Below, one piece after another: positions 3,603 through 31,600 of a stretch of DNA of 62,973 bases (its first letter is position 1; every line of letters starts with the position of its first letter). Origin of the DNA: a virus (taxonomy: Duplodnaviria > Caudoviricetes); IMG/VR virus record IMGVR_UViG_3300036761_000576, positions 1 through 62,973 of that record. One strand, given 5' to 3'. The translations under genes were made by a program, and so were the position numbers. The notes beneath the pieces were generated by a model. It saw only the letters and a program-made list of their open reading frames with translations, searched no databases and was not told where the DNA came from.

Positions 3603-3973
3603 CAGAAGGCCTCATTCGCGGGCTCGTTTTGAATGGCTTCCCGCTCGAGCAGCTCTTCGGCGATCAGGCATACCGGGCGTGCCGTTGGCCGCCGGACTGC
3701 GTTCGCCCAGCCCGTGGGCGGGGGCGTGCGCACGCTTCCGTAGCCTCGCCCTCTGAACATCGGGAAATGTTGGTGGCAGTACCAGCGATCCGAGCCACGG
3801 GTGCTTTCGGTGAGCGTGCCTGGCTTGCTGCATCGATTGCCTTGAGCATCAGTGTCGGCACAACGCCACCAATTTTGGTCATGGCCTTTACTGGGTGCTG
3901 CCGGCTTCCCGGCTGCGCATTTCAGGCAGTACGGCCCATCAACCACGCTGCCACAAGTGGGGCAATCTTTCAT
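3602..3973 (-). CDS. Zn-finger protein downstream of the replication initiator
   Basis: CPTC, CLKC, C..C, YCHQH. Confidence 0.7.
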   Translation of the reverse strand: MKDCPTCGSVVDGPYCLKCAAGKPAAPSKGHDQNWWRCADTDAQGNRCSKPGTLTESTRGSDRWYCHQHFPMFRGRGYGSVRTPPPTGWANAVRRPTARPVCLIAEELLEREAIQNEPANEAF

Positions 3974-4734
3974 CGCGTCGGCTCCATTTCAGCGCGTCGA
4001 ATCCACGTCCGCCAGACAGCCAGCCACTTGACTTTGGTGGCGTCCTTTCCGGCTTTGGCCGTCCAGTAATCTCGGAAGGTGATCGATTCACGGACAACAC
4101 CCTGCGAGGTCCAGTCGGGACGGATGGCGAGAGCTATCGCCTCCCAGTCGTCAGGCAGTCGCCAGTCATCAGGAAGGCGGGTCCCGCGAGCACTGCCGTT
4201 GAGTCCTTTGTCTTTTTTCTCCGGTTTTTGGGAAAGGGGGCTTTTTGGCAAAAAAGCACCAGGCTCTTGAACTGCTTTTGTTTTTAAGGCTTCTGGCTTC
4301 TGGCTACTGGCTAGCATTCCTCCCGCGCGAGCATTGCCATCGCTATGCGTTTGCATTGCGTTCGCATCAGCGTCGCATGTGCCTTCACATTGCCTTGGTA
4401 ATGCCATCGCATTGCGTTCGCTCCATCTGTGCTTTGCGGATTGACGGGCAGACGCACTGCGTTCGGACTGCGCCAGCAATTCAAGATCGGCCCGTTTCTG
4501 ATGCAGCCCATCCGCCTGCACGGTGAAATATCGCCCGACCACGTAATCCACCGCGACCTTGTCCGCTTTGCTGATGGCGCCGGCCATCCGATACCGTTCA
4601 CGTTGCTCGAGCGGGAGAGGCTTTTCGCTCGCGTAATACTGGTCGAGCAAGGCCGTGTAGGCTCCCCGCTCCGTGAGAGAGAGCCCTACGGTGTCGCGGA
4701 TGAAATCCCCGACATGACGCGGGTAATGATTCAC
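3970..4734 (-). CDS. Replication initiator, YdaU/DUF1376 family
   Basis: NHYPRHVGDF..DT..LS..ERGAY..LLD.YY; C-terminal RGTRLPDDW...FRDYW...W...WRTW. Confidence 0.85.
   Translation of the reverse strand: MNHYPRHVGDFIRDTVGLSLTERGAYTALLDQYYASEKPLPLEQRERYRMAGAISKADKVAVDYVVGRYFTVQADGLHQKRADLELLAQSERSASARQSAKHRWSERNAMALPRQCEGTCDADANAMQTHSDGNARAGGMLASSQKPEALKTKAVQEPGAFLPKSPLSQKPEKKDKGLNGSARGTRLPDDWRLPDDWEAIALAIRPDWTSQGVVRESITFRDYWTAKAGKDATKVKWLAVWRTWIRRAEMEPTR
4270..4421. promoter_or_regulatory. Putative replication origin within the initiator gene
   Basis: GCATTGCGTTCGC at 4353 and 4409 plus related GCATTGCCATCGC copies; adjacent AT-rich tract and TGGCT(T/A)C repeats, as in lambda O. Confidence 0.55.
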
Positions 4735-5072
4735 GCCGCCCCCAGCACTGGCTGCAAGGCTTGCATGAGCAGTAGGAGCGCCACCCCGTTGCGCAACTGG
4801 TCCGGTGTCACGTACAGCACGCGCCAACCGGCGAGCGCGGCGGCATTCATTTTTTCCATTTCCTTGAGTTGGCCGGCGCCGCGGGTGTGACGGCCTTGCA
4901 CCCAGATCCCACCATTGACTTCAAGGGCGAGCATGTGCAGCGGCCAGGCGTAGTCAAAACGCCACTTCCGCGTCGCGTGGAATTGGTACTCAGGGACCGG
5001 CTCCGGTAGCCGCGCAGCGCGACACAGGTTGACCAACGAGTAGATCGTCATCGCGTGCACGACCTGGTTCAT
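4731..5072 (-). CDS. PD-(D/E)XK endonuclease (DUF559/VRR-NUC-like)
   Basis: PEYQFH..RKWRFDYAW...ALEVNGG.W..GRHTRG...GWRVL. Confidence 0.8.
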   Translation of the reverse strand: MNQVVHAMTIYSLVNLCRAARLPEPVPEYQFHATRKWRFDYAWPLHMLALEVNGGIWVQGRHTRGAGQLKEMEKMNAAALAGWRVLYVTPDQLRNGVALLLLMQALQPVLGAA

Positions 5073-5383
5073 TCCGCGTCTTCCTCGAACAGCAGTCCGC
5101 GCTCCGCAATGGCGCGGCGTGCGATCGTTTCGATGGCGTGCGCGAGATCGGCGTTCACGCACACACGGGTCTTGTCGACGGCTTTCAGATCCAGCGCATC
5201 GAGGAATTTCGGCAGGTCGTCGAGCCGCACACCGGACTCGCCGTTGAGGATCTTCGTGGTCCACGACTCGGCTTTGCCCATGGCCATGTCGATCGCCTCA
5301 CGCTTTGCCCTTCCCAGACGCAAGCGGATGATCCCCATCCCTGGGAGTGCACCCGTCGCTGTTGTAGTGGACAGTTCTGCCAT
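5069..5383 (-). CDS. CII-like transcriptional regulator
   Basis: Between cro and replication genes; HTH-like AMGKAESWTTKIL; start uncertain. Confidence 0.55.
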   Translation of the reverse strand: MAELSTTTATGALPGMGIIRLRLGRAKREAIDMAMGKAESWTTKILNGESGVRLDDLPKFLDALDLKAVDKTRVCVNADLAHAIETIARRAIAERGLLFEEDAE

Positions 5384-5418
5384 GACATCAGGCGGCGCCC
5401 CCTCCCACGCGAAGATGC

Positions 5419-5694
5419 GTGTTCCTGCACACACCCAACATGGGAGGGTTTACCGTGGAAATAAGCGAAGCCGATTGGTACGATTTGGTCGCGCACACCG
5501 ACCTCGTACAAACGCTTGTCCTGCAATTGGTGCACCAGCACCCGCAGCGCGGCATGTTCATTTCCGGCCTCGCGCACGCGGTTCGGGACACTGCGGAAAA
5601 ATTACTCGCCATGCCTGTACCAGACGCACAAATAGCGGCGCTGGACCGGGAGGGTCAACGGTTACTCGCCTTGCTGAGAGCGCCAACAACGTAG
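5419..5694 (+). CDS. Possible antisense-oriented hypothetical protein
   Basis: Fills the gap between cII-like gene and cro; GGAGG precedes an internal GTG. Confidence 0.35.
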   Translation: MFLHTPNMGGFTVEISEADWYDLVAHTDLVQTLVLQLVHQHPQRGMFISGLAHAVRDTAEKLLAMPVPDAQIAALDREGQRLLALLRAPTT

Positions 5695-5727
5695 CCGTCA
5701 TCCGGCGGTTGAAATCGTCCTGGTCGC

Positions 5728-5979
5728 TCATGCCGCTTCCTTCGTCGGCATCGGCTTGCCCCGTATCACCGCCCAGTCGATGTCAGGTCGCAGCTCCTCG
5801 ACCGTCACCGCACCCTCAGTTACGCGCTCGATCTCAATGGCGCGATCCGTTGGCAGAGGTCTTGCCCCAGTGCACCACTGCGAAACCATAGAAACCGAAA
5901 CACCAAGGCGATTGGCAAGAGAGACCTGCGAACCAACTTCCCCGCAGGCTTTCCGGATTGCATCAATGGAGGCACTCAT
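5728..5979 (-). CDS. cro: Cro-like repressor (YdaS family)
   Basis: GSQVSLANRLGVSVSMVSQW...IERVTEGAVTVEELRPD; divergent from cI. Confidence 0.9.
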   Translation of the reverse strand: MSASIDAIRKACGEVGSQVSLANRLGVSVSMVSQWCTGARPLPTDRAIEIERVTEGAVTVEELRPDIDWAVIRGKPMPTKEAA

Positions 5980-5987
5980 GGAAACAC

Positions 5988-6028
5988 AATGTACAGCATT
6001 GCTGACTGCCAAGTCAACTGCATTGCTG
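5988..6028 (-). promoter_or_regulatory. PR-like promoter with two operators
   Basis: Minus-strand TTGACT (6017-6012) and TACATT; operators CAGCATTGCTG 5994-6004 and CTGCATTGCTG 6018-6028. Confidence 0.75.
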
Positions 6029-6058
6029 TTTCCTAGGAAACGGGCAGATTATTCAGCG

Positions 6059-6622
6059 ATGCTTAAGCGCGACAACCACGCGGCGCGCAAGATCGAGTGG
6101 GCCCTGCAACAGCCGGGGATCACGCCCAATGGGTTACGACGACTAGCTAAACTCAAAAGCAAGTCAGCAGTTTCTGAATGGAAGCGCACCGGGCGAATTG
6201 CTAAGCATCACATCCCACTACTGGCCGCACGAACCAACACGATAGAGCGCTGGTGGCTTACCAAAGACGCCCCGATCCCGCCGACCGTTCAATGGACGAC
6301 AGCAAGAGAGCCGAACGCCACCATCGAGCCAGTTTCCGTCGGACACCGAACGTTGGCTGAGTTGTCGACGGCGCAGGCGAAATTACTCGAGGTTTGGGCG
6401 CGACTGACAAAGACCCAGCAGGCGTCGCAGATGGATCAACTCCAAGCAACGGCGGCGAGCAACATCGAGATTGCCGAGCACCTGGTTGGGCTTGGCATCA
6501 CCCGCGTCATCTCCGACAGTGAAGTCAAAGAAAAATTGCGCCCCGAGGCGGCTCTCCGCGAGGGGATCACCCCTGGGAGTGTTCTCCAGCAGAGCCGCAA
6601 AGAGGTGAGGAAAAAACCATGA
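6059..6622 (+). CDS. cI: CI-like immunity repressor
   Basis: N-terminal HTH (KSKSAVSEWKRTGRIAK), divergent from cro; no obvious S24 peptidase domain. Confidence 0.75.
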   Translation: MLKRDNHAARKIEWALQQPGITPNGLRRLAKLKSKSAVSEWKRTGRIAKHHIPLLAARTNTIERWWLTKDAPIPPTVQWTTAREPNATIEPVSVGHRTLAELSTAQAKLLEVWARLTKTQQASQMDQLQATAASNIEIAEHLVGLGITRVISDSEVKEKLRPEAALREGITPGSVLQQSRKEVRKKP

Positions 6623-7260
6623 ACATCACGGTGGTCGCCACGTGCGCAACGCTGTTGCTCGGAGCTTGTGCGGGAGCTAAACCTGCGAACACCCAACCGC
6701 TCAAACCAGGCGCATCGAACTACTGGGAAGTCGTTTTCGCTGAGTGTGAGGCGCTTGGATACCGTCCTAAGACACCGGAACTTACGGCCTGCGTCGACAG
6801 GCTGGATACAACGAAATACGCACACCGATACGCCCCCGAAGGGGCACCTATATCGCTTAGCCAAACACCGCCGCCCAAACCTCAACCCTCGGCTCAAGCG
6901 CCCGCGGCCGTCTCCGTCCAGGAGGAATGTCGCGTCGTCCCAAGCAGTCCATACGACGATCCCCGCTTGCTGCGCCAAATGGCCACCATTTACTTGAAGC
7001 ATGGCCTATCCGAAGGAACGGATTTCCTGCAACGCGCATCGAACGCGCAGCAAGAGATAGACCTCCAGGAACGCGCATGCGCGCTGTGCGCCAATGCTGG
7101 CCTTGCCAACGGTAGCTTGGAGCGAAGCAACTGCGTTGCCGATCAAGTCGCAAAGCATCGGCGACCAGAGCGCGCAGATCCGTCACCAGGCTTTCGACAA
7201 AAGAGCAGCGTGACGTGCCGAAAGAATGTGCTCGGCGACGTGACCTGCACCGAAGACTAA
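6619..7260 (+). CDS. Lipoprotein coupled to cI; candidate superinfection-exclusion protein
   Basis: Lipobox LLGAC, two C-xxx-G...CV units, ATGA overlap with cI, segment matching the ejection protein. Confidence 0.8.
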   Translation: MNITVVATCATLLLGACAGAKPANTQPLKPGASNYWEVVFAECEALGYRPKTPELTACVDRLDTTKYAHRYAPEGAPISLSQTPPPKPQPSAQAPAAVSVQEECRVVPSSPYDDPRLLRQMATIYLKHGLSEGTDFLQRASNAQQEIDLQERACALCANAGLANGSLERSNCVADQVAKHRRPERADPSPGFRQKSSVTCRKNVLGDVTCTED

Positions 7261-7264
7261 GCCT

Positions 7265-7519
7265 ATGGCCGACGAACCACTGATCCAATCGCTTGTCGAT
7301 CGCGTGAATCGACAGGAAGCAGAGTTCGCAGTCCTGCGCACGCTCCTCGTGCTCGTGGCGCGACAAGCATCAGACCGCGCCGCTCTACTGCGAGAATTCG
7401 ATCGCTCCATGGAGGACCAGACGGTCAGAACCATCTACGCCACCATGCCAGAAGAATTCCTCGAAGAGCTGCGAATCGCGGCGTCGGTGTTTCGAGAACA
7501 ATTACTCGACGACGGCTGA
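7265..7519 (+). CDS. Hypothetical helical protein in the cI operon
   Basis: Starts 4 nt after the lipoprotein stop. Confidence 0.65.
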   Translation: MADEPLIQSLVDRVNRQEAEFAVLRTLLVLVARQASDRAALLREFDRSMEDQTVRTIYATMPEEFLEELRIAASVFREQLLDDG

Positions 7520-7897: not shown

Positions 7898-7937
7898 CAG
7901 CAATGCTGTTGACAGCATACCAGCATTGCTGTATTCT
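7898..7937 (+). promoter_or_regulatory. PL-like sigma70 promoter with two operators
   Basis: TTGACA (7909-14), 17 nt, TATTCT (7932-37); CAGCAATGCTG 7898-7908 and CAGCATTGCTG 7921-7931. Confidence 0.85.
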
Positions 7938-8288: not shown

Positions 8289-8497
8289 CACCGCTACGCA
8301 AGCCTGTCTCGCGCGAGTCAACGGTCCGCGACGCTGGCCGCAACGTGATCGTCACGATCGGGCCGGGAGACATCATCAGCTTCCGCCTCAAAGGCTGCCG
8401 CAAGAGCGTGACCACAACGCTCGCGGCAACGTTCCACATGGCCGTCAAGGCCGAAGTGGCGGCCAAACGTGCCGCAAAGAAAGGAGCACGCAGATGA
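8285..8497 (+). CDS. Small basic hypothetical protein
   Basis: MTPLRKPVSRE...FRLKGCRK; ATGA coupling. Confidence 0.75.
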   Translation: MTPLRKPVSRESTVRDAGRNVIVTIGPGDIISFRLKGCRKSVTTTLAATFHMAVKAEVAAKRAAKKGARR

Positions 8498-9009
8498 CAA
8501 GAGCCATCGCTGCCCTGCCGCATCGCAAGACCGGACCCAAACTACAGGATCTCTGCGATCGATTCTTTCGGTACGTCAACAAGACGGCCACCTGCTGGCT
8601 ATGGACAGCCGCTCGCAACCGCGATGGCTACGGCTCGCTCATGCGTCACGGGCGAGGCTCCCCACTCGCGCATCGCATTAGTTACGAAATCCACGTTGGC
8701 CCCATCCCCAACGGCCTACATGTGTTGCACCGCTGCGACGTTCCAGTGTGCGTGAACCCGGAGCATCTTTTCCTTGGCACGCAGGCTGAAAACAACGCCG
8801 ACATGCTTGCTAAGGAGCGCTACGCAAGAGGGAGAAAGTGCTGGCACGCGAAGCTCACCGAAGCCGATGTTGCGGAAATCCGACGGGTACACAGTTCCGC
8901 CCGACTCGGCAGCGCCGGAACTGGGTACACGCTTCTCGGCAGACGTTTCGGTGTCTCAGGCACAACGGTTCGCGCTGCCGTCACCCGCCGCACATGGAGG
9001 CACGTATGA
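8494..9009 (+). CDS. HNH homing endonuclease
   Basis: CWLW...GYG...AHRISY...VLHRCDVPVCVNPEHLFLGTQAEN; AKLTEADV C-terminal domain. Confidence 0.95.
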   Translation: MTRAIAALPHRKTGPKLQDLCDRFFRYVNKTATCWLWTAARNRDGYGSLMRHGRGSPLAHRISYEIHVGPIPNGLHVLHRCDVPVCVNPEHLFLGTQAENNADMLAKERYARGRKCWHAKLTEADVAEIRRVHSSARLGSAGTGYTLLGRRFGVSGTTVRAAVTRRTWRHV

Positions 9010-9374: not shown

Positions 9375-9577
9375 CCACGATTTTCCAGGACTACCCGGAG
9401 TACGCGGGCGTCGATACGTTCGTGGCCGAGCAGCAGCGCCCGTTGAGCGTGCTGCGCGACCGTTGCGTGCATTGCGGAGGCTTTGGCTCGATCGACTACA
9501 ACGACCAGTCGCAGCGGTGCGTGTTTTGCCACGGCTCCGGCTGGATCGAGTACACCAAACCACAGAGGAAGCCATGA
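9371..9577 (+). CDS. Small Zn-ribbon protein
   Basis: CVHCGGFG and CVFCHGSG (CxxCxGxG x2). Confidence 0.7.
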   Translation: MTTIFQDYPEYAGVDTFVAEQQRPLSVLRDRCVHCGGFGSIDYNDQSQRCVFCHGSGWIEYTKPQRKP

Positions 9578-10485
9578 GTGACGTAGTCCAGTACCAGGGC
9601 ACCGCGATCGCCACTGTCGGCGAGATCGTGTCCCACACCCTGCGCGTGCAGGAGATATTGAAGTCGGTGATGAAACAAGACGTTCACTACGGGATCATCC
9701 CAGGCACGAAGAAGAACACGCTCTACAAGCCCGGCGCCGAGATCCTGTGCGTCACCTTCCGCATCGTGCCAACCTACGAAGTCAGTGAGGATCGGTTCGA
9801 TGACGGCGTGCGCTATCGCGTCACCTGCTCTGGCGTGCATCAGGGCACCGGTGCGATCGTCGCCACCGGCCTCGGATCCTGCTCCTCGCTGGAGGAAAAG
9901 TACAAGTGGTGCAAGGCGTCCAAGCGCGAATGGGAGGCGACGCAGATCGATCGTCGCCGCGTCCAGTTCGGGTACAGCCGCTCGACGAACACCGAATACG
10001 AGATCCAGCAGGTTCGAGTCGAGACCGCGGACATCGAGAACACGCTTCTCAAGATGGCGTGCAAGCGGGCGTTGATCGCAATGACCCTCAACGCTGTAGC
10101 GGCAAGCGACATTTTTGCGCAGGACATCGAGGATCTTTCGGCAAAGGCCCGTTCGATCGTCACTGACACGGAGACGGGCGAGATCGGTAGCGAGGCCAAG
10201 AAGGAGCCTGTCAAGCCACCGCAGGCGAAGTCGGCGCCGAAGGCGGAGACGAAGCCAGCCAACGGCAACGGGCAGGCCGACGCATCGGGCGGCACCGCCG
10301 GCCCAACGGATGCAGACGCAACCGCAGCCAGCAACGGCTTGGTGCAGCACGTTCGCAATCGCTTGGCCAACGCGCAGATCGACGAGGCCGTGTGTCTCAA
10401 GCATTTCGACCTCGAAACGCTTGCCGGGATCACGGTCGCGCAGGCCAACGCGATCCTTTCGTGGTCGAGAAATTCGGCTGCGTGA
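9574..10485 (+). CDS. Putative single-strand annealing/recombination protein
   Basis: LYKPGAE...NTLLKMACKRA...ASDIFAQDIED; adjacent to exonuclease. Confidence 0.6.
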   Translation: MSDVVQYQGTAIATVGEIVSHTLRVQEILKSVMKQDVHYGIIPGTKKNTLYKPGAEILCVTFRIVPTYEVSEDRFDDGVRYRVTCSGVHQGTGAIVATGLGSCSSLEEKYKWCKASKREWEATQIDRRRVQFGYSRSTNTEYEIQQVRVETADIENTLLKMACKRALIAMTLNAVAASDIFAQDIEDLSAKARSIVTDTETGEIGSEAKKEPVKPPQAKSAPKAETKPANGNGQADASGGTAGPTDADATAASNGLVQHVRNRLANAQIDEAVCLKHFDLETLAGITVAQANAILSWSRNSAA

Positions 10486-11075
10486 TGCTGACGTTCGACC
10501 CCGTTGCTCACGCCTATTACTGGGGTGGCCAGCGTGTGCCAAATGTGACTTCCGTCCTGGAGAGCGTCGGGCTTACCGATTTCAGCGGTGTCAATGCGGA
10601 AGTGATGGCGCTGGCGCAGGCGCGCGGAAAGGCCGTACACCGGGCCTGCGAGCTGCACGATAACGACGACCTCGACGAGTCGACCGTAGACCCAGAGATC
10701 GTCGGCTATCTCGCTGCCTGGCGCCGATTTCGGAGAGAGACGCATCACGAGTGGGAGAACATCGAAAAGCGCGCCTACCACCCACGCTATCGCTATGCCG
10801 GCACTGCGGACAGGACGGGCAAGTTGTTTGGGAATCCTGCGCTGGTCGACATCAAGACCGGCGTGCCGCAACCGGCGACGGGTGCGCAGACGGCCGCATA
10901 CGCCAATCTGCATTGGCCGCCAGGCGACGCGGAGCGGAAGGTGCATCGCTACGCCGTGCACCTTGGTGCCAGCGGCATGTACCACTTGATCGAATACAAG
11001 GACCGCACCGATTTCGGTGTTTTTCTCTCTGCTCTGACAATTTTTAATTGGCTAGGAAATCATGGAAACCGTTGA
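10485..11075 (+). CDS. PD-(D/E)XK exonuclease (RecE/Cas4-like)
   Basis: RGKAVH...YAGTADR...LVDIKTG...QTAAY. Confidence 0.85.
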   Translation: MLTFDPVAHAYYWGGQRVPNVTSVLESVGLTDFSGVNAEVMALAQARGKAVHRACELHDNDDLDESTVDPEIVGYLAAWRRFRRETHHEWENIEKRAYHPRYRYAGTADRTGKLFGNPALVDIKTGVPQPATGAQTAAYANLHWPPGDAERKVHRYAVHLGASGMYHLIEYKDRTDFGVFLSALTIFNWLGNHGNR

Positions 11076-11877
11076 AAAAATCCGCTCCATTTCGTATCAA
11101 GCCCCGACTGCGGTGGAATTGCTGACGCCGGCGGAGGCCGCGTTGCGTGACGTCGAAGCCTTCATGGTCGACTGCCTGCCAATGCGCGACATTGCCACGC
11201 AGGAAATGAACGCCGCCAAGACGAAGGCGAAGCAGCTCGACGAGCGCGAAAAGCAGATCACGCGGCCGATTCTCGCTGGCCTGGACGAGATCCGGGATTT
11301 GTTCCGTGGTCCGAAGGAGCTGATGAAGAAAGTCGCTGATCTCTACGCGGTCAAGATCATCGACTTCAACCGCGAACAGGATCGGCGGCGCCGCATCGAA
11401 GAAGAGAAGCTGGCGGAAAGCGCCCGCAAGGAGCAGGCCAAGGTGCGCGAAGAGGCGGCGCGCGTAGCCGCCAAAGCTGCCGCCGACGCGGAGGTCTTGC
11501 GCCAGAAGGCTGCCGACGCCGCAGCCGCCGGCAATGCAGGCCAGGCTGCCCGGCTCGCGTTGCGGGCAGAAGCCACAGTCGAGGCCGGCGAGAACAAAGC
11601 GGCGGCGCTGAATGACATGGCCGACGCCGCGCCTATCGCGCCGGTGCTCGCCGCTGCGCCAAAGATGGACGGCGCGCACGAGACTGGCCGGTGGAGCGCG
11701 GAGGTCACGGACAAGGCCGCGCTGGTCGCGTTCGTTGCCGCGAACCCGATGTTTCTGCACCTGCTGGACGTCAACGCGATGGCGCTCAACGCGCAGGCAC
11801 GTTCGTTGAAGGATGCCTTCCAGATCCCTGGATGCCGCGCGATCAAGAAGGTCGGGCTGACATCAAGGGCAGCATGA
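11062..11877 (+). CDS. Coiled-coil protein of the recombination module
   Basis: Long A/E/K/R-rich helix, C-terminal W.AEVTD...IPG motif. Confidence 0.7.
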   Translation: METVEKIRSISYQAPTAVELLTPAEAALRDVEAFMVDCLPMRDIATQEMNAAKTKAKQLDEREKQITRPILAGLDEIRDLFRGPKELMKKVADLYAVKIIDFNREQDRRRRIEEEKLAESARKEQAKVREEAARVAAKAAADAEVLRQKAADAAAAGNAGQAARLALRAEATVEAGENKAAALNDMADAAPIAPVLAAAPKMDGAHETGRWSAEVTDKAALVAFVAANPMFLHLLDVNAMALNAQARSLKDAFQIPGCRAIKKVGLTSRAA

Positions 11878-12858: not shown

Positions 12859-13800
12859 TTATTTGTGTGAGCGTCTTCGGTGCCCGATGAGCATCTTCGC
12901 CAGCTCGAGCACGTCGAGCTTCCTCGATAGCCGAGTGATCGCGTTGGCCCGCGAATCGTGGAAGTGGACGCCGACGATGCCCGCGCGATCGCGGGCCGCC
13001 CGGAAGTGAACGTCGAGGGTTGCCGGGGCCAGGCCGAGGCCCTTGGGGACCAGCTCGAGCAGCGCGAGGGCCGTGGAGGACAGCGGAACCTGGCGCGCAT
13101 CGCCGTTTTTCGTGCGCGGCAGGGTCAGGAATCGGCCAGGAGCGTCGATGTCCTCGCGCTTGAGCCCACACAGCTCGCCCGCGCGCATCGCGGTTTCCAA
13201 GGCCAGCAGGAAGGCGACGGCGACGCGCTGCCCTGCCGTCTGCGCGGGTGTACCACGTTCGTAGCCCAGCGCCATGAGGATGCGCTCGATCTCGTCGTCG
13301 GAGAACAGGCGCTTCCGTGCCGGCGGGCTCGGCGGGCGCTTGACACTGGCCATCGGGTTGTCGTGGAGCCAGCCCCATTCGAGGCGGGCAACCTCGAATA
13401 CCTGCCGCAGCAGGCCCATTTCGCGGCGCACGGTGGCCGGCGCCAGCGTCAGGAGCGCGGCGTCGCGCCACTCCGCAACGTCGGCGCGCATCACCGCGGC
13501 GAGCATCTTGGCGCGGAACGGCAGCTCGCGCGCGAGCTTTGTGCAGCGCACCTTCTCCCAGCGCGCGCCCTTGTGCGTCGGGGCGACCTTCTCGGCGTAG
13601 GCGTCGAGGGCCTGCTTCACCGTTCGCGGTATGATCTTCCCGCGGCGGGTGTCGCGTAACTCGGTTTCCCGGCGCGCGGCCCAGGCGGAAGCCTCCGCCT
13701 TGGTGTCGAACGTCGCGGACTCGCGCGGGAAGCCCTTGAGATCAATGCGTGCGCGCCAGGTGGAGCGGCGTTTGCCGCGCTGGGGTTCGAAGGAGGCCAC
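12859..13800 (-). CDS. int: Tyrosine integrase, C-terminus truncated (no catalytic Tyr)
   Basis: TAMRAGE, TKNG, FHDSR, IGH motifs; ends GHRRRSHK. Confidence 0.9.
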   Translation of the reverse strand: MASFEPQRGKRRSTWRARIDLKGFPRESATFDTKAEASAWAARRETELRDTRRGKIIPRTVKQALDAYAEKVAPTHKGARWEKVRCTKLARELPFRAKMLAAVMRADVAEWRDAALLTLAPATVRREMGLLRQVFEVARLEWGWLHDNPMASVKRPPSPPARKRLFSDDEIERILMALGYERGTPAQTAGQRVAVAFLLALETAMRAGELCGLKREDIDAPGRFLTLPRTKNGDARQVPLSSTALALLELVPKGLGLAPATLDVHFRAARDRAGIVGVHFHDSRANAITRLSRKLDVLELAKMLIGHRRRSHK

Positions 13801-14338: not shown

Positions 14339-14487
14339 CAGAGTCTCCTTCGGTCGTTGCGACGGTAGATGACCTCGAGGAACAGCGCCAACGCGGCGAC
14401 AACGATCCCGACCACGCCGAACACCAGAACCGCCTCGGGGTCGAGCAACAGTGCCAGGACCGTGATGCCGACCAGGAAGTAGCTCAT
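14338..14487 (-). CDS. Small membrane protein
   Basis: Hydrophobic, ATGA-coupled to the giant gene. Confidence 0.55.
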   Translation of the reverse strand: MSYFLVGITVLALLLDPEAVLVFGVVGIVVAALALFLEVIYRRNDRRRL

Positions 14488-17400
14488 TGCAGCGCCTCTC
14501 TGACCGCTGGGCGCATACCCTTTGGCGCGGTCTTCGCAATCCGTTCCTCGCGCAGCGCCCGCATGGCCTTCACCCTCTGGTTCACGCCGGCCATGTCGAT
14601 GCGGATGCGGGAGTCGGGGTTCTTCTCGTTCCAGTCGACGAGATCCGCGCGCGCGCGCTCGACCTTCGATGGGTCGTTCTCGAACCGCCCTTCCGCCATG
14701 AGGCCGGCAATATCGCCCTGCACCCTCTTCGCAAGCCCGATGTCTTGCTGGATGTCGCGGGCCTTGCGGGAGGCCACGGCAACGCTTTGCGGTTGCAGGC
14801 CGATCGCCTTCGCCGCGGCGTCCGCGCCCGTGGTCTCGATGACGTTCCTGCCCTTGAAGTCGCGGTAGTGGCCCGTCTGCATCATGTCGATGGCCTTCAT
14901 GGCATTCTGCACCGCCGTCGGCGCCATGGACACGGCCACACCCCGCTTGTCGCCAGCTACCGCGGCGTCCCACGCCCTGCCGATGCCCTGCACAAAGCCG
15001 CCGATCGGCCCGAAGGCTTCGTTCACGTCGCGGGTCTTGTCAACCTCGGAGCGTTTGAGGATGGCCGTGCCGGGGACCATATTCCCGAAACCCAGCCGGC
15101 CAATATCCACCGGGAAGCCGGTCACGCCGGAAATCCCGTGCATCATGAAGTCGGGCGCGAGATCGTGCAGCCACCGCTTGCTGTTGGTGTTGTAGCCGAT
15201 GGCCTGGCCGATGGTGTCGACCAGATCCTCGAGGTCTTCGGCGAACGGCAAGCCTTGCAGCCCTGCCGCGAAGATCAGAATGGCGATGGCCAAGGCTTGC
15301 TCGCGCGGCGGGAGCCGCTTCACGAACTCGACGTAGGCGATGCTGAACTGCTTGAAGGTGAACAGCGTAGCCCCGACGCCGCTGCGCGCCCACACGGGGC
15401 GATTGGCGCGGCTGTAGACGCCCTGGGTGTCATGCACGGCCTTCTCGGCGAAGGCGTAGGCGTCCGTCACCCCTGCCTTCCTGAACTGCTCGGGCGTCAT
15501 GTCCTGCGCCGCGCGCCACGCCGCGATGAACGTGATCTTGCGGTTCCACGCCTCGGCCAGCGAGAAAAGCGAGCCCCACGCCCGCAGGAACTTCCGCGCC
15601 GGCAGCGAGCCCCCAAGCGTGCGGATCGACTCCGCGTACAGCGCGTGAATCTCGTGGGGCTCGGTGATCCCTTCCTTCTCGGCCTGGAGTAACGCGGCCC
15701 TCAACGCGGGCTCGTTGATCGGCCCGCCCGCCGCTGCTCGAGCTGCGCCCGTGAGCGCCTTGGCCGCGCCGGCGGGCCCCGTGAATTGCGACAGGTACGC
15801 CAAGGTCTGGGTGACCGGCTGAGTCATGTTGACCAGTGCAGAAGCGATGTTGCCGCCGAGGTAGTTGACGAACAGGAGGCCCCGAATAGCCGAAGCCTCC
15901 TCGGTCGGGTTCTGCACGTAGTCGAGGAGCTTGATGGCGTGATCTTTGACGTCGCCGCGGCCCAGTTCGTTGACCGCTTCCCGCATTTCGCCAAGGTGGT
16001 AATTCTTGCTGGCGAGCCGCGCGTTGCTGGTGACGAAGGTTGCCAGCACGCGCGTCACGTCCTGCTCGAAGCCGGGCGTGCCCTGCCGGTGCATCAGCCG
16101 CTTCAAGGCGGAGCGATTGTTGACCGCCAGACGAAGGTACTGCTGGAAGACCGCGGACTCCTCGGCGCCGATCGCGTGCGCGAACAGCTTGAGCGAGTCG
16201 AGCGAGATCCCGCCGTAGAGCTTGTACGCCTCCTTCGACATGATGTTGGTGTAAACCTCGGCGTCGGGGTACTCCTCCTTCATGCGCCGCTCCATTCGGC
16301 GCTGCTCGGCCTGGCTCTCGTACATGCCGAAGAAGATGGATTCCTTCGTCTCCGGGTCCTGCACGAACACCGTGTACTGCCCGAAGCGCATCAGCGGGGC
16401 GTAGCCCTCGGCCTTGAGCGTCTTGGCCCGGTCGAAGGTCTTGCTGACGTCGGAGAGCATCTTGGCCGAGATGTCACGGGTGGTTTCCCACGCTTTCACG
16501 GCGAAGTCGTGGCGGGCTTCCAGCTCGGCACGCTGCTCCTTCCGCGCGGCCTCCACCGTGAGCCGGCCGCCGGGGCCCTTCGCCGCCTTGAGGAGCGGCG
16601 CCGTGGCCTTGTCGAACGCCTTGAGTTCGGCCGTGCGCTTGTCCACCGCGCGCCGGTAGCCCGCTTGCTCCCTCTCGGCGATCGGCCGCAGGAAAGCATC
16701 ATAGATACCAGGAGCGCCGACGGGATCGGCCTTCGCCGCCTCGATCACGCTCCGCGACAGCGGTGTTCCGCGAACCTGCTGCGCGGCCGAGGACGCCGCC
16801 AGGTCGTCGAGCGAGCGGTCGAGCGCGGCCCGTGCTTGGCGGTACAAGTCCACTTGCTTCGCGGTCAACCCCTTCGCCGCGAGTTCCTCATCGGAGTACA
16901 CCTTCTTGTCTTCAAGCGTGCCGTCGAAGATCGCCTTCGCCACGGCGTCGAAGTCGGCGCGCGACGGAGCCTGCTTGTCCTTCGAGCGCAGGATGTTGGG
17001 CAGGACGTCCCGGATGTTCTTGAGCGTCGGCAGGAGATCCGGCGCGAGCTGCGCCGCGTCCATCGAGAACTGGTTGGTGTCGTTGATGTACTTCTGAGCG
17101 AGCCGGAACACCGGCTTGAACGCGGGCACCGTCTCGGCGATGTGGTACATCGTGCCGACGCTCTTGTGCCACCAGTTGAGGGTCTTGCTACTGTTCAGGA
17201 GGAAGGCGAGGCGGTCCTGAATGCCCTCGCGGGTGACGGGGCCGAGGCCAGGGATGGCGCGAGAGAACATCGGCATCCCCGCCAGAGCCTTCTCGCGCAT
17301 AGCCGGGGTGATGTCGAAGCCCTGTTGCTCGCCGACCTTCGCGGTCTGCACCAGTTTCCCGCCGAACAATTCAGCGAGGTTCGCGCTGCCGTGTTCTTGA

Positions 17401-20400
17401 ATAGCTGTGCGGAATGGCACTCCCTGCCCCATTGCCTCCACAACGCTGCGGAGTTGGCGCTCCAGCGTAGCGCCATGATCCTTCTCGTGGATCTTTTCGT
17501 GTACGTCTCGCGCCGTCGGTATTGGCCCCTCGTAGTGCTGGAACTGGACCCCGTTCTCCACCACGCCCTTGAACGTCCGGACGCGCTCACCACCTAATTT
17601 CTTGAGGATGTCGTTGGCGACGGAGGGGATGATGCGATCGTAGAAGCCGCGCATTCCTGAGCCGCCTATGTCGAGGCCCTCTCCTGAGAGTTCTCCCTTG
17701 TGCTTCGCGGCAATCTTCTCGGCCACCTCCTTGCCAAGCACTTCGTCGAGACCCTTGCCCACTAGGCGTTCAGCGTGGACGTTGGTGTGGTGGTCGACGA
17801 TCTTTCCGCCGTCTACGGTGAACCGGATCGAGCCGTGGCCGACCGTGGTGATCTTGACGTCCTGCTTCGTCGTGCCGATGACGGGATCCCACTTGATGCC
17901 GTCTACCTGCGATGACAGGGAGTACCGCTTGTTCTGCTGATCTCCCGTTGTCCACGCCACCGCATCCATGCCATTTTCGGACGCATAACGTATGGCGCGC
18001 TTGAGTGCCAGGGCGACCCAGGCTTCGGTCTTCTGGACAAAGGGGGCGGGAGGCGGGGCCGCTCCAAGTCGATCGTACTCAGGAGTAATTTCGTCCATGC
18101 GCGCCAGGTCTGCCGCGCCGGCATTGCGCATATCTCCACCGGATCGCGCTTGAATGGCAGCGCGCTCGGCCGCAAGTTTGGCGCGTTTGTCGTTGTCGTT
18201 GAATCCCTCCTTCCGCCCCTTCTGCGCCCAGTCGGATTGAATCTCCTCGATGAACAGCACCGGCTTGCCCTCGGCGTCGGTGCGCTCGTTCATCCGAACG
18301 TGCACCAGCACGTTGTCGGCAACGTCGGAGTAGTGGCCTTGGCGGAAGTCGCGGTTGCCGTTTGGCGTGTTCCGCATTTCCTCGACCAGTCGATCGCGCT
18401 GGCTGTCGCTCAGGTTTTCGAGGATTGACGTGCCAAATAGGCGCTTTGCCACATCGCCGGTCGTGGTTTCTCGACGCGGCAGCGTGATAAGCAGCTCGCG
18501 GTAGTTGCTGCCGCCGGGCTGCTGCCATTGGGCGTGCTTGGGTTCTCCCGGTCTAGGACCGGAATAGTTTGACTCGTTATCGCGTAGCTCGCCCAAGCGC
18601 GTTGCCGGCGCGGCAACATTGCTGTGCAGCGTTTCAACCGTGTCGCCTTCATCGGGCTCAGAGTCGGGATCGGCGTTTGTCCATTCCCGCGTCCCTTCAT
18701 CAAAGACGAAATACATATCGTCCCGATCGCGCGTGAGGCCCTGCAACCGGCTCTCGTAGTCGATGTCCGGTGTGTAGCCAAGATGGGCGAGTCGCGCCGT
18801 CAGGCTTTCAACGGTGTCGCCGTCGCTCTCCGCCTTCTTCTCGCCAAGCACCCTCTCATCCAGCCGCGTGCCGTTCTCGTCGAGGAAGGCGCCCACCTGG
18901 TCGCGCGTGACGCGGCGCTCGAGCTTGAGGAAGTCGGTCAGGCCGGACCATTCCAGCTCGTCTTTCTTGAACGTGCCGTCCTTGGTGCGGGCTTCGAGCC
19001 AGCGCGCGAGCTGGGGGCTGTCGATCACCCCAGCCTTGGAGAATGGAGCCTTCGCCGCGACGGACTCGGCGAGAGCGGAGCGCCAGATCGGGGCCTTGCG
19101 CGAAGCGGCCGCTTGGCGGTCGCCTGCCGGTCGCTCGGCGGTCGCTTGGCTACCGCGCAGCACGTCGTTGACGTAGGCAAGCGCCTCGGCGTCGGTGAAC
19201 CCCTCCATCGCATCCGCCATGCGCGTCAGGCCCATCTTCCGCAGCCAGGTCTGCACGGCCGCAAGGAAGCGGCCCAATCCCGTCAGATTCGCCCCGCGCT
19301 GGCCAAGATCGGCAAGCGCCTCCTCGTAGGATTGGAAGCGGTGCGCGAACTCTGAACGCCCGTCCCGGCCGTTCGCTGCGCGCCACGCCGCCGCGGCCTT
19401 GCGAAGATTGGGATTGATCGCCACCAGGCGGTCAAACTCCCCGCGGAGCGCGGGCTCGCGCTTGAGCTGGTCATGGAACAACTCGTGGAACGCGACGTGC
19501 TCGACGTCGACCGGGCTGAACAGATTGTCCGCGACGAAGTAGAGTTTGCCGCCGTGCGATGCCCCGCGGGTGTCGGGGCTGGCCTTGAACGGCAGATCGG
19601 CGACGTGCTGGACGACGACGCGCTCGGGCCATGCCTCGCTGGTGAAGGAATCGACTTGCGAGTGGACGCCAGAAGCGGAAAGCCCGCCAGAGGGGCGGGC
19701 TTCATTGGCGCGCGATTGCGCGGAACCGGGAGGCTCTACTTTTTCGGCAGGTTGAATGCCTTTTGCATGTAGGCGCGCGTCTCGTTCCCGTTCTGCCGCA
19801 CCCGCTCGATTTCTGAGGGAGTCAGCATCCCGGAAGCTGAGGATGTACCCCGCCTCCGCTGCGGTGAGGGCGGCGGGCTCGATGTTGAATATTTCGCGGA
19901 CGGCATCGCCATAGCGTTGTTCGACCTGGTTGATCTGCTGCTTAGACGCCTGCATTGTCGGCGTTCGGCTGGCGTCCGTCAACACGACCGTTCCGATGAC
20001 TTCGCCGCCCCCGGCCCGGATGTGGTCGCCCAACTCCGCCAGCGTGCCGCCCATCGTGCTCACGTCGTCGGCCAACACGTACCGCGCACCAGAGACAACT
20101 TCGCCGTCGAACACGGGTCTGGCGATAAGGCGCTCCATCGCCTTCGCGCCGGTGTGGAATGCGTGGTTCGTCTGCACGATCACCGGCGCCAAAGCGCCGT
20201 CGGTAGCCTCGGCGTAACGCGCCGCCAACGCTGCCGGCAGCGCGTTCAGACCACTTGCCTCTTCCGCGTGCGGCCACGCGAACAATGCACCACCCCCGAA
20301 CGCCTTGCGGGCCTCGTCGAGATCATCCTCGTTCACCAAGTCGCGAACCAGGCGCTCGGCCGCTTCCGGGTCGCCAGCCTTCGCCGCGATGTAGTCGGCG

Positions 20401-23400
20401 TGCCCTTTGAGCGCGTTAGTGTTGCGCGAGCTGGCGATCTGCTTGGTTTCCGCTGGCAGTCCTTCCCGCCTTGTGGCCCGCGAAAACATCGCCTCGCCTT
20501 GGTCTGGCGAGTAGGTCGCCTCTTGTTCCTTGGCGTACCAAGATGGCAAATCAGGCGACTTCCTGCCCGTCTTATCAATGCGGGAAACAGGAACCTTGCC
20601 GGGAGCCATGTCGCCACGCGCGGCCACGGAGTTCTCATCTCCGGCCGCAATGACGTCGCCGAAAACGCCAGATTTCCGCAGCAAGGCGTACTCGGGGCTC
20701 ATGGCGCTGGTAGGCGTTACCGCAAACAGGTAGCCGCCAGTACCGGCCTGCAACATGGCGCGGCGCACCGCCGCGAGCATTCTGATGCTTTCTGGCCGGG
20801 TCTTTGGTTGCAGCGAGGGCACCGGAATTTCGGTGACGAGCCCAATGAGTCCGCGCGGGCCGCCAGTAGCAATCACGGTCACGTAGCCGTCTCGCGTCTG
20901 GAGCTCCTTTGCTATGGCCACCATCTGGCTCGGGCCGGTGATTGGACGGCCGAGCATCGGGTGCGGAGCTTCGACATTGCTGCCAGCGAGCGCCTTGCTA
21001 TTGAGTTCCGGAGCCGGCACCGTGCTGTCCGTGCCGTCAGCGAGGATCTGGTGAAACTCGTTGTGGTCGATGATGACGTGGCCGACGAAACCGGGCACGT
21101 TTTGCTTGAGCATGTCCGTGAGGAAGCGGTCAGACCCGGACGCCTCCGCCAATCCCGACGGATGGTTGTGCAGGAGCCAGTACCGCACATGACCAAATTG
21201 CCCCTTGCCGAACCGGAGCTTGTCGGCCGCAACGTGCTGGTCAAGGTCCGCGGGAAGGTGAACCGCACCAGGAAGGCGCGACGAATACGTACCCTCGCCG
21301 ATGACTCGATCGGCGCTGTCGACGTAGAAAACGCGGAAGGTCTCGAACCGGGGATCGCGCAGCACTTGCGCGATCGTGGCGAGATCCTGCGGGCCCCGGA
21401 CTTGCTGCCCGACGAGCGTTACACCGCCGTCGGCGCGGAAGTCCTTGGAGATACGGCTACCAAGTAGGGCGGCGCCGTGCCGTCCAGAACCAGCGGGCCC
21501 GAAGATGCGCCTTTCCGCAGCAGCGAGAGCAGCTCGGCCGTCGTCCTTTTGCGCGTCGGTAGTGCCGGGGCGGGTTTTAAGTGGCTCATACGGGTCAGAG
21601 AAGGGGTCGGGTGGGGTTGGTTCGCCGGTCTTATTGTACGCCCCGTTGGGCTCGTAGAGCGCAATCCCCTTGTCGGTTTCCTTGGTCTGGATGACATTGA
21701 AGAGATCATCAAACGCCGCGTCGATCGCCGCACGCTCCGCGCCCTCGGGGTAGGGCTTCATGTCGAAGGCCGCGTAATACTTGTTTTCGACCGCGTGTAC
21801 CAGATAGTCGCTCTTCTTCTGCGCCGCCGCGAGCTGGTCGAAGATGTACGACTCGAACGCGCGGGCACCCATTTCGTGCCTGGTGCTCCAATAGTCAGAC
21901 GCACGCAGTCCGTCGATCTTATTCGCTTCGTTGAGGTACTCGGTCCCGGTTCTGCGCTCCTCGATCGTGCCCTTTTGCGCCGAGGCAACGCGGTCCTGCA
22001 TATCCTTCACGCTCTTGATGTGCCAATGCAGTCGCCGCCCTTGGGAATCGGGGTCGGCTCGGTCGAAACTGCGACCACGCACTTCCTTGTAGATCGCATT
22101 GAGCACGCGCACTACTTCCGACGATCCATAGCCGAATGAAAAACGCCCAGCGCCCTTCGGTGGCGGCACTTGGACGTCGGCCCCATTGTCGCCAGCCATC
22201 GCGCGCTCGGCCAACGCATCCCACGCCTTCAACTGCGCGGGCGTCGCGGCGCCTTTCTTCTGGCCGTATTCGGCCTTCTTGGCAATCTCGGAGCGAAGCC
22301 CGTCCAGGTTGTACTTGAGGCTCTCCTGCGCCGTGGTGAGGCGGCGCGTGGCTACGTTCTCATCGACGGCTACACCCTCCTTCTTGGCCGTCATCGTGTC
22401 GACCAGATGCTTGAACGCGGCGATCAGCTCAGGGCGCGCATCGGTGTTGTACGGGAAGCCGTAGGTGGCGTAGGGCCGCCCCTCTTTCAGCACCGTGCGG
22501 GCGCGCTGCGCCTTGGCATTGTCGGCGCTCTTGGTCAGGTAGTCGTCGAGCGCGTGGAACCACTCGTGAGCGAGGGAGCCGGCGCCCCTGATCTTCGTCA
22601 GGTTGATGACGACCTTATCGGGCCCGTAGTGCGCCGCTGCTGCGCCAACGCCTCCGGTCCCGCGTGCGCCGAAAGCCACCGCAAGCTCGCCGTTCAGGGA
22701 CAGAGCCTTGGCCGGCACGCCGATGGTGTCCGCCAGATCGTGCAGTGCGTCGTAGGCGTGATTGAGCGCCGCCTGGCCGTCGCTGCCCATATTCCAGTTG
22801 CCAAACTCACCAGCGCGGAAGCCGAACGCTTCCTGGAACATCTTGGTGGTGACGTCGCCCTTGCGTTTTGGCTCGCCTACGCGCTCGATGCGATCGAGCC
22901 AAGGCTTCTCGGGGAATTGAAACTTGTGTTCAATGATCGGCACGGGGTCGGACGCCATCGCTTTCATGGCATCTTCTTCCGTGGCGAATCCACCCTTCAC
23001 CAGCGCCCGCTTGCGCTCGCCGATTTGACGGAAAATCCCCTGCTTCTGCTCGCCGTCCTTGTCCTTGTACGAATAGACGCGGTGATTGCGCGCGACCTCG
23101 GCCAGCGGAATCGCGGCGAGCGCGTCCTCTTCGGTGTCAAACACCGTGCGCGAGGCGCGACTCACAGCGCCGCTGGCGCCGCGGTTGGCGCGCATCAGCT
23201 CCCACTTGCCGGTCTTCTTCGGTTGTTCCGCGTTCCGCATCGGGAACGAGTACGACGACGAACGCTCGAGCTGCTCCATAGCGATGTACGGACGCGCCCA
23301 TGCCGGGCGCTCGTCGACGACCTTCGAGATCGTGCCGCGCTTGCCAAGCGGAGTGGCCGTATCCTTGCGCGCGCCGCCGATCTTGGGCCCAAAATCAGCT

Positions 23401-29855: not shown

Positions 29856-30230
29856 TCAGCTCAATGTCCAGTCGTAGACAGACGGCAGCGTTCTCGGCAC
29901 GCGCTTCTGAGTCACGAATGGTGTCGGCTCCGTCGGTTGCTGCGCCTCAAGACCAGGCGGTTGCGTGAACATCGGCGTTGGCGGCTGCGCACCAAGGGGA
30001 TTTGGATCTACGGCTTCGGCAGCGGGATTTCGATTTCCAATAAGAGAGGCTTGCGCATCGCGTCGAGCCATCCAATCCTGTTGAAACTTCTCTTGGAAAT
30101 CTTTCACGCTAATACCAGCTTCCTTGTTCGCATTGATCTTGTTGAGCAGTGACCCCGCTTCGAGGCCGCCTCTGAAACCAGACGCCGCGCCACCGGCCAC
30201 GTATCCAATCTGCGAAAGTAGTCTAGCCAT
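29856..30230 (-). CDS. Putative small ejection protein
   Basis: GGAASGFRGG N-terminus; position in the ejection cluster. Confidence 0.6.
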   Translation of the reverse strand: MARLLSQIGYVAGGAASGFRGGLEAGSLLNKINANKEAGISVKDFQEKFQQDWMARRDAQASLIGNRNPAAEAVDPNPLGAQPPTPMFTQPPGLEAQQPTEPTPFVTQKRVPRTLPSVYDWTLS

Positions 30231-31110: not shown

Positions 31111-31600
31111 CACGCACTCCTTCTCGTGTTGCTGTCTCTGTCCTAAGATTGTCCAGGTAGCCGACGAATCCTTCGTCATGCACCCACTCGCGGAGCTTGC
31201 CGCCCTGCTCCACGCCCCATTCCACGCCGCCGATCAAGGTCGCGCTCATCGTAGCCAGGTCGACATAGGAACTTCGCGTTATGAACGCGATCATCAGCGC
31301 ACCAGCATCAGGGGATTCCATGCGCTCGATGTTGTTGGCGATGCGCCAGTTGACGATGGCGTTGACCAGAATCGGCTGCAACACCGAGCGATGCGTCGCG
31401 TAGAAGGCGTTGTTCGGGATCGCAATCAAGGTCAGCCAAAACGCCTCGTGAATATCCTCGTCGGTGAGCTGCTTGTCCTTGTCGACGAGGTCATCCCACA
31501 CGTGAAGCACCCGCGCGATATCGTGCAGGAACTCGATCGCGCTTGCGTTACCTTGCACGGCGCGCGCGACCAGCGGATCGGTTATAGGCTCATTCATCAT
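31085..31600 (-). CDS. Isoprenoid-synthase-like helical protein
   Basis: HVWDDLVDKD (DDxxD motif). Confidence 0.6.
   Translation of the reverse strand: MMNEPITDPLVARAVQGNASAIEFLHDIARVLHVWDDLVDKDKQLTDEDIHEAFWLTLIAIPNNAFYATHRSVLQPILVNAIVNWRIANNIERMESPDAGALMIAFITRSSYVDLATMSATLIGGVEWGVEQGGKLREWVHDEGFVGYLDNLRTETATREGVRDGVRSLWR

Follow-up and report, generated by a model that had tools for sequence, protein, structure and literature searches.

A small gene and the segment it shares with a probable virion protein

Our subject is a single small gene in a viral genome, and the stretch of protein that it has in common with another gene of the same genome. The window, as we call the whole stretch of DNA that was analysed, is IMG/VR virus record IMGVR_UViG_3300036761_000576 at its full length of 62,973 bp (61.8% G+C, with a completeness estimated by CheckV at 84%). 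The gene encodes an exported protein of 213 amino acids (aa), probably a lipoprotein, and the protein that it resembles in part is a 442-aa protein, P0003, which we take to be a probable internal virion protein. Judged from sequence comparison, the chance that the gene is a decoy-type superinfection exclusion gene, competing with kin phages at the step of DNA entry, falls in our view a little short of even. The features on which the argument turns are these:

6619..7260, + strand: exported protein, probable lipoprotein, 213 aa (open reading frame (ORF) overlapping the gene before it in an ATGA)
6952..7056, + strand: shared segment in the lipoprotein, residues 112-146, a helix-turn-helix hairpin (BLASTP, hhalign; predicted helices 115-127 and 132-159)
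7000..7023, + strand: turn octapeptide HGLSEGTD, lipoprotein residues 128-135
28526..29854, - strand: 442-aa protein (P0003), probable internal virion (ejection) protein (synteny, weak similarities and an AlphaFold2 (AF2) model)
29579..29683, - strand: shared segment in the 442-aa protein, residues 58-92 (BLASTP; predicted helices 61-73 and 77-91)
29612..29635, - strand: turn HGLSEGLD in the 442-aa protein

As far as profiles can tell, the segment match between the two families is a real homology, because their comparison in hhalign gives a probability of 97.6% and an E value of 4.2e-12 over 37 columns. Between the two single sequences, BLASTP gives an ungapped alignment of 17/35 identities (E 1e-8), in which lipoprotein residues 112-146 pair with 58-92 of the 442-aa protein. 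When either segment is compared with all six frames of the whole record, its sole match outside its own gene is in the other one (E 6.5e-6 and 1.6e-5). The likeness had been picked up in an initial annotation of this DNA, which described both ORFs and reported 17/32 ungapped identities between nucleotides (nt) 6961-7056 and 29674-29579, with an exact KHGLSEG; all of this is correct, down to the codons that it quoted, and the 17 identities all fall within its 32-residue span. Both segments are predicted to be helical hairpins, single and unrepeated in each protein, and a look for TPR/Sel1-like repeats in either one gave no Pfam match at E<=1 except DUF6508 at E 0.12.

The DNA tells of an old relationship. 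The two segments are identical at 58/105 nt, with a longest exact run of 5 nt and the same codon at 7/17 of the identical residues; the turns agree at 17/24 nt, with synonymous differences at 5/7 of the identical turn codons, and the flanks at 41/81. Because the DNA has diverged this far, the segment is no recent copy, recent gene conversion does not fit, and the idea of the initial annotation, that the likeness has been conserved at the level of the protein, stands; the divergence of the flanks leaves no visible substrate for homologous gene conversion.

The exported protein and its family

The 213-aa protein consists of a signal peptide with LLGAC (Cys17), an N-terminal Cys pair (C43/C58), a Pro-rich linker (residues ~75-100) and a Cys-rich C-domain (~100-213), and there is a Shine-Dalgarno-like stretch, GAGGTGAGGA, just 5' of its ATG. 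Its relatives in 5.8 billion protein clusters number three, P0001 (141 aa), P0002 (133 aa) and P0063 (137 aa), and each of these is a plain signal peptide followed directly by the C-domain, in which six cysteines (C104, C154, C157, C172, C200 and C210 in the window protein) are invariant. The lipobox, the Cys pair C43/C58 and the Pro-rich linker are extras of the window member alone within its family. Since the C-domain stands alone in P0001, P0002 and P0063, the shared segment is, by family comparison, an integral and conserved part of a Cys-rich exported domain of ~110 residues, and no insert. Here the initial annotation needs amending, as it had placed the segment in an otherwise unrelated lipoprotein: the match holds, the otherwise unrelated setting does not.

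Export of the window protein is likely, and hydrophobic signal-like N-termini are found in 4/4 members of the family. By eye, LLGAC with Cys17 after ITVVATCATLL fits the lipobox consensus [LVI][ASTVIG][GAS]C; the lipobox Cys is absent from the plain signal peptides of P0001, P0002 and P0063, and the window signal peptide would also suit signal peptidase I, with cleavage between ACA and G. Lipidation is accordingly not a certainty, and may be peculiar to the window member.

An AF2 model built on a shallow alignment has a mean predicted local distance difference test (pLDDT) of 65.7, rising to 81-90 over residues 111-180, and places helices at 115-127, 132-159 and 167-181. C104 and C154 flank the hairpin, and a disulfide between them could staple it. 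Looked for among the known exclusion and defence families (SieA, Ltp, Llp, Cor and those of PADLOC), the protein has no match in Pfam, PHROGs, NCBIfam or PADLOC, nor has it a sequence match in the PDB or a significant fold match, the ESM Atlas scores being only 0.83-0.85. By eye, two Cys-pair units at 6745..6792 and 7087..7134 (+ strand) share the spacing C-x3-G-x10-C-V (C43..C58 and C157..C172); an internal duplication may lie behind this, though the idea was dropped, since BLASTP finds no similarity between the units and the spacing is all that they share.

Eight residues at the tip of the hairpin

The turn of the hairpin is where the two proteins of this genome come closest to one another. 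We divided the segment into 8 turn residues and 27 flank residues and scored the window lipoprotein against 54 representatives of the 442-aa family. Its turn, HGLSEGTD, agrees with the HGLSEGLD of the co-resident P0003 at 7/8 positions, and among the other 53 representatives the best agreement is 4/8 (eight of them), followed by 3/8 (24), 2/8 (14) and 1/8 (seven). The flanks agree with P0003 at 10/27, a rank of 24-37 among the 54; the extra similarity to the resident protein is confined to the eight residues that make up the turn and the start of helix 2. In the 442-aa family the typical turn is a near-constant G[LM]PEG, with Pro and Gly each at 46/54 in their columns, and Ser at the Pro column occurs in 1/54 and Asp at the last turn column in 3/54; multiplied together, the frequencies of the seven matched residues in their columns give 2e-5. 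The view from the lipoprotein side is similar. Eight residues are private to the window lipoprotein in its own family, and P0003, first of the 54 in this respect, shares four of them (H, S, E and D), for which the Poisson-binomial probability of at least four is 0.005-0.007. The turn is also the least conserved stretch in the lipoprotein family: between the window protein and P0001 it agrees at 3/8, and the helices agree at 14/16 and 10/11 and the Cys unit at 34/37.

Because the turn matches at 7/8, the flanks are ordinary and gene conversion lacks a substrate, the turn match reads, from these comparisons, as one that has been held by selection; an old micro-patch event is possible as its source. 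The competing thought is that the two proteins share ancestry and have no functional link, so that a hairpin inherited long ago now sits in a protein serving envelope fitness or some other role in lysogenic conversion, and that the match at the turn is down to chance, a constraint at the helix N-cap or an old micro-conversion. This we judge unlikely, though it has a good deal in its favour: the identity of the flanks to the resident protein is ordinary, P0001 and P0002 have no special match to the 442-aa-family representatives P0004 and P0005, conserved residues in helical hairpins are often structural, a single co-resident pair is known, and the protein matches no PADLOC defence family. What it has to contend with is a turn that combines the rare Ser and the rare Asp at a level of agreement unapproached by the 53 others, a second rare turn type common to P0063 and P0059, and the circumstance that, in a domain which is conserved elsewhere, nothing changes faster than the turn; the variant that invokes gene conversion meets DNA flanks that are too diverged.

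That second turn type belongs to P0063, the most distant member of the lipoprotein family, whose HGDDTGLE agrees with the HGDDTGLQ of P0059 at 7/8 (frequency product 2e-6), the next best being P0054 at 6/8. Its flanks agree at 11-14/27 with the other lipoproteins and at 10/27 with P0059, and the same pattern therefore appears to be present twice, with a scaffold that follows the lipoprotein family and a turn that follows a particular virion protein; sharing of a genome is established only for the window pair. A segment tree of 40 columns, 5 of them lipoprotein-specific, unites all four lipoprotein segments in a single clade beside P0015 (100/89); in a tree of 35 columns P0063 groups with P0059, with an SH-like approximate likelihood ratio test (SH-aLRT) value of 92.6. 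In approximately unbiased (AU) tests, monophyly of the lipoproteins (p 0.74) and a clade of the window lipoprotein with P0003 (p 0.67) both remain acceptable.

The 442-aa protein as a probable virion protein

If the resident protein is to act on incoming phages in the way that we suppose, the 442-aa protein has to be part of what they bring with them, and gene order is one guide to this. Its neighbours are:

14484..28529, - strand: giant polyvalent protein, 4681 aa, with SLT lytic transglycosylase (E 1.7e-14, residues 20-109), LPD1 (E 4.5e-20), 2_5_RNA_ligase2/Acb1-like and Pribosyltran domains
29856..30230, - strand: 124-aa ORF with a Gly-rich N-terminus, directly upstream of the 442-aa gene, no match in Pfam, PHROG, PADLOC or NCBIfam
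30223..31179, - strand: virion structural protein, 318 aa, with a C-terminal intramolecular chaperone domain (phrog_8003 E 3.5e-46; Pfam Peptidase_S74 E 1.9e-6)

Along the minus strand the order is thus 318 aa (phrog_8003), 124 aa, 442 aa and 4681 aa with its N-terminal SLT. The same layout is found in phages Skulduggery, PEp14 and SopranoGao, in which the gene that immediately precedes the DarB-like giant bears the annotation 'virion structural protein'; the 442-aa gene, upstream of an SLT-bearing giant, is in the position of a virion-protein gene, as the initial annotation had presumed. In phage JC1 the place immediately before the DarB-like gp69 is taken by gp68, and mass spectrometry of purified virions detected this positional counterpart (PMC9144972). 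Direct comparison with the Bcep22 gp74 and PEp14_00026 types of virion protein gives weak scores, with E values of 0.015 and 0.025 in BLASTP and of 0.037 and 0.26 in hhalign, the hhalign match including a common A[FY]N..G.F.D motif, and Foldseek pairs the 442-aa model with a 383-aa SopranoGao protein (the size of its gp07) at E 0.01 and probability 0.80. It is reasonable, on this footing, to regard the 442-aa protein as a virion or ejection protein.

The family to which it belongs is well populated and has few known connections. A segment profile of 50 positions, built from three members of each family (A3) and searched against 1,835,955,588 representative proteins at E<=1e-3, has 60 matches, of which 54 are the 442-aa family (52 at 344-624 aa and 2 truncated at 159 aa), one is a lipoprotein cluster (P0002) and five are artefacts from multi-stretch repeat proteins, the two inspected being short tandem repeats. 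The initial annotation had worried that the motif might be widespread in unrelated proteins; because the matches divide in this manner, it is not, and is confined, in a search of this kind, to the two families. In the members of the 442-aa family that were inspected the segment is followed by NVFEAL..GD..A..AFN.SG.F...KNDDGTWT, and the hairpin is the most conserved element of the 442-aa protein. The AF2 model of the latter (52 sequences, mean pLDDT 80.9) has a disordered N-terminus, an N-domain of five helices and three strands at 51-155, an 89-residue helix at 157-245 and then the C-terminal parts; there is no Pfam or PHROG match, no fold match in BFVD or the PDB at E<=0.001 and no meaningful match in a PDB sequence search. 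In 50,697 phage records, tblastn finds no match for P0006, P0015, the 442-aa protein, the lipoprotein or the repressor-like protein encoded next to it; the 318-aa virion structural protein has matches in 35 records. Related loci were not found in viral contigs (queries A1, A2, A5, P0059 and P0063, A5 being a 10-sequence alignment), metagenome contigs (A1 and A2) or genome contigs (A2 and A6).

With SLT, LPD1, 2H/Acb1-like and phosphoribosyltransferase (PRTase) domains in one polypeptide, the giant is a polyvalent protein, a family treated in PMC5512222, and because it carries the Acb1-like/2H, PRTase and LPD1 domains besides the SLT, it may be injected as anti-defence cargo. The Acb1-like/2H phosphoesterase lies at ~889-981, LPD1 at 2207-2283 and the PRTase at ~2807-2855. 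The 124-aa ORF starts with MARLLSQIGYVAGGAASGF... and is Gly-rich, by eye like the N-termini of the long forms P0011, P0015 and P0023, in which the hairpin lies ~160 residues in; the notion that it is a split-off N-terminal module of the long forms was dropped for P0011 and P0015 on BLASTP E values of 0.16 and 4.8. Upstream of the internal-protein genes there is also a 292-aa Gly-rich ORF (31597..32475, - strand) with GGGG runs and GxG repeats and no PHROG match.

The neighbourhood of the giant gene suggests another way in which the resident protein might work. The hairpin of the 442-aa protein could dock on the SLT domain of the giant, and the periplasmic copy, like the Spackle protein of T4, would then bind the incoming SLT and halt the penetration of peptidoglycan. 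The 442-aa gene directly precedes the giant gene, with its SLT in the first 109 residues, which is agreeable to the idea, and modulation of a lysozyme is the described means by which T4 Sp keeps peptidoglycan from being degraded (PMC11436027). The lipoprotein itself bears no likeness to known lysozyme or transglycosylase inhibitors in Pfam or in PDB sequence and fold searches, and we regard this version as very unlikely.

The phage and its immunity region

The phage is, on the strength of its portal protein, a Bcep22-like podophage: this protein has 41-45% identity to those of Pseudomonas phage Skulduggery, Burkholderia phage BcepMigl and several Ralstonia phages, which is the basis of the placement, and portal, major head and terminase genes are all found in the window. 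Its layout, with an integrase and a lambdoid immunity region, is that of a temperate phage, as read from the genes listed here:

3970..4827, - strand: primosomal/replication gene, left of the Cro/YdaS-like gene
5069..5434, - strand: CII-like gene, left of the Cro/YdaS-like gene
5728..6012, - strand: Cro/YdaS-like helix-turn-helix (HTH) gene, 94 aa, divergent from the repressor-like gene (Pfam YdaS_toxin E 1.1e-22, P22_Cro E 2.1e-11)
6059..6622, + strand: repressor-like gene, 187 aa from the ATG at 6059 (by its position only, divergent from the Cro-like gene)
7265..7519, + strand: downstream ORF, 84 aa, no match in Pfam, PADLOC or NCBIfam
12859..13800: integrase

The position of the lipoprotein gene links it to this region, with Cro-like, CII-like and integrase genes nearby and, as noted in the initial annotation, an ATG at 6619 that overlaps the TGA of the ORF before it at 6620-6622 (ATGA). 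The repressor-like protein has a weak HTH, NF046037 at E 9.4e-4, as its sole family match, under the curated cut-off, and none in Pfam, PHROG, PADLOC or the PDB. Beyond the 84-aa ORF there is a promoter-like site on the + strand at 7909-7937. Further along the early-left operon, an HNH endonuclease gene (8494..9009, + strand) stands between the immunity region and the genes for recombination, which encode a phrog_10048 protein (9463..10485) and an exonuclease (11062..11877). The G+C content at third codon positions (GC3) is 0.62-0.67 in the lipoprotein gene and its operon neighbours and 0.70-0.79 in structural genes, which is usual for morons.

The phage is known from sediment metagenomes only, and near-identical sequence occurs in five sediment-metagenome runs from five coded studies, one of them perhaps the origin of the record; no RNA run is among the 7 runs found with matching sequence. 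When the reads of 4 sediment-metagenome runs were set against 5700-7600, the lipoprotein gene was identical in runs X3, X4 and X5, and there is therefore no microdiversity to exploit. Run X3 also holds a 164-nt contig with 14 differences over 7147..7258, the 3' end of the lipoprotein gene, and complete divergence past 7258, so that samples of this kind also contain the gene as a second variant in a different context.

How the resident protein might exclude its kin

On the reading that we favour, 6619..7260 would be a moron that a temperate Bcep22-like podophage carries in its immunity operon; its product would be exported to the periplasm and, in the window phage, would probably be tethered there by lipid. 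The hairpin that it would display has its homologue in the best-conserved part of the phage's own 442-aa probable internal virion protein; elsewhere the hairpin diverged, as did the DNA, and the tip would have been kept matched to that of the virion protein. Internal proteins ejected into the periplasm by a kin phage would then meet the resident protein, which would occupy the partner of the incoming hairpin, or cap the incoming protein itself; the trans-envelope conduit would fail and the DNA would stay out, a form of superinfection exclusion by mimicry. From gene position and sequence we infer expression in lysogens, a periplasmic location, the virion or ejection status of the 442-aa protein, binding of any kind and exclusion itself. 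A fuller version, in which the prophage shows a copy of its own ejectosome specificity loop on a disulfide-rich periplasmic scaffold, matched by selection and re-tunable, and so poisons conduit assembly by its kin, is more speculative, and we put it forward as a tentative and somewhat doubtful proposal. A complex prediction for residues 48-160 of the 442-aa protein with residues 100-213 of the lipoprotein scored 0.02, below the mark, and weighs neither for nor against an interaction.

The tips might also be alike because both bind one component of the host envelope, in which case the resident protein would mask a docking site, which is still exclusion, or exploit the component in some other manner. 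Adaptation of both proteins to one host predicts a turn that is matched within the genome, which is what we see; the signal peptides and the synteny of the virion gene would have both proteins meet in the periplasm; and host proteins are the targets of known exclusion lipoproteins, FhuA in the case of T5 Llp and LptD in that of Rtp45 (PMC12685063). Set against this, no host is known, and a near-constant G[LM]PEG turn suits a conserved phage or cell-wall partner better than it does a variable host protein. Present evidence does not separate the common target from the decoy, and of the two we see the common target as distinctly unlikely.

A number of observations weigh against the decoy, and they deserve to be set out together. 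Over the whole segment, the window lipoprotein matches P0008 best (19/35), with its own P0003 second of 54 (17/35), so that the initial annotation's copy of the phage's own ejection protein survives as a homology and, outside the turn, has no closer tie to the resident protein than to many others. A change from Pro to Ser at a helix N-cap is conservative, and such a change in parallel would be easier than the column frequencies imply. Just one pair, the window lipoprotein and P0003, is known to share a genome; P0001 and P0002, the latter with AGLPQGVN, have the common GLPQGV turn, agreeing at 5/8 with P0004 and P0005, as do 8 and 13 other representatives, and over the whole segment P0004 ranks 11th for P0001 and P0005 23rd for P0002. 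The co-variation of lipoprotein and ejection protein that the initial annotation asked after is thus visible in the window pair and not in these two. Segment phylogeny, for its part, does not decide between one origin and several. The link from the 442-aa protein to proven virion proteins is made by synteny and weak scores. The gene upstream of the lipoprotein owes the name of repressor (cI) to its position, so that the overlap with the 'cI stop', as the initial annotation had it, holds for the immunity region and the overlapping stop and is less sure for cI. The window signal peptide has no Lys or Arg in its n-region (MNITVV...). Finally, the gene caller of the source annotated only a 93-aa ORF from Met121 (P0062; 6979..7260, + strand), a call that cuts the hairpin and loses the signal peptide; the long 213-aa ORF is, on comparison with its homologues, the real form, because these are conserved upstream of Met121 (ECRVVP..PYDDP).

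Relation to known systems

The nearest known case in function is SieA of P22, which blocks the conduit of ejection proteins and is escaped by mutations in the ejection proteins gp16 and gp20, so that in both systems it would be ejection proteins that set specificity (PMC10883804). The window protein differs in being exported, soluble or lipid-anchored, and in carrying a homologous piece of its putative target; in Pfam, PHROG and PADLOC we see no sequence relation between the two. T4 has the exclusion proteins Sp and Imm. Sp inhibits the tail lysozyme and copies no segment of a virion protein, and T4 being virulent, Sp has no function in a lysogen. It is alike in being an exclusion factor that acts in the periplasm and is aimed at a component delivered by the incoming virion (PMC11436027). 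Ltp of Streptococcus thermophilus phage TP-J34 differs from the window protein in its Gram-positive host and shows no homology to it. The fold of Ltp is one of HTH repeats, and its target is the tape measure. The likeness is that of a prophage lipoprotein at work in superinfection exclusion (PMC3952083). T5 Llp and Rtp45 are likewise small periplasm-facing phage lipoproteins that give exclusion; they differ in binding the host receptor (FhuA and LptD), in stopping adsorption or triggering, and in having no likeness to a virion protein (PMC12685063; see also 10.64898/2026.03.26.714494).

For the virion side, the window order of 124 aa, 442 aa and 4681 aa resembles that of gp14-gp15-gp16 in T7. 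There a small gene and a mid-size helical gene are followed by a very large one, gp16, with an N-terminal lytic transglycosylase. The resemblance goes no further than order, in that the 442-aa protein has no sequence or fold match to solved ejection proteins and the window giant is polyvalent and DarB-like. The three T7 proteins form an ejectosome (PMC8605104).

Exclusion by prophage envelope proteins is already known, and what would be new is a self-matched copy of the target's loop. Animals have derivatives of endogenous retroviral env and gag, in which a resident viral fragment of a virion component hampers the entry or assembly of kin viruses. The domain of life and the machinery are other than those considered here, and this is an analogy only. 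In full-text searches of the literature, supplements and subscription journals aside, and in passages of a 2024 review of exclusion (PMC11436027), we met no account of a phage that excludes others by means of a copy of its own ejection protein.

What the finding would mean

Prophages commonly encode envelope proteins that keep DNA from entering, but the manner in which these recognise their targets is understood for very few. If the decoy is real, recognition would in this case come from copying the interaction loop of the target itself. The specificity of exclusion would then be readable, and indeed predictable, from a comparison of two genes in one genome, and it would be re-tunable by a swap of eight residues. 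It would also mark a functional site in an uncharacterised family of podophage internal proteins, one that spans 54 representative clusters and has no solved or annotated relative.

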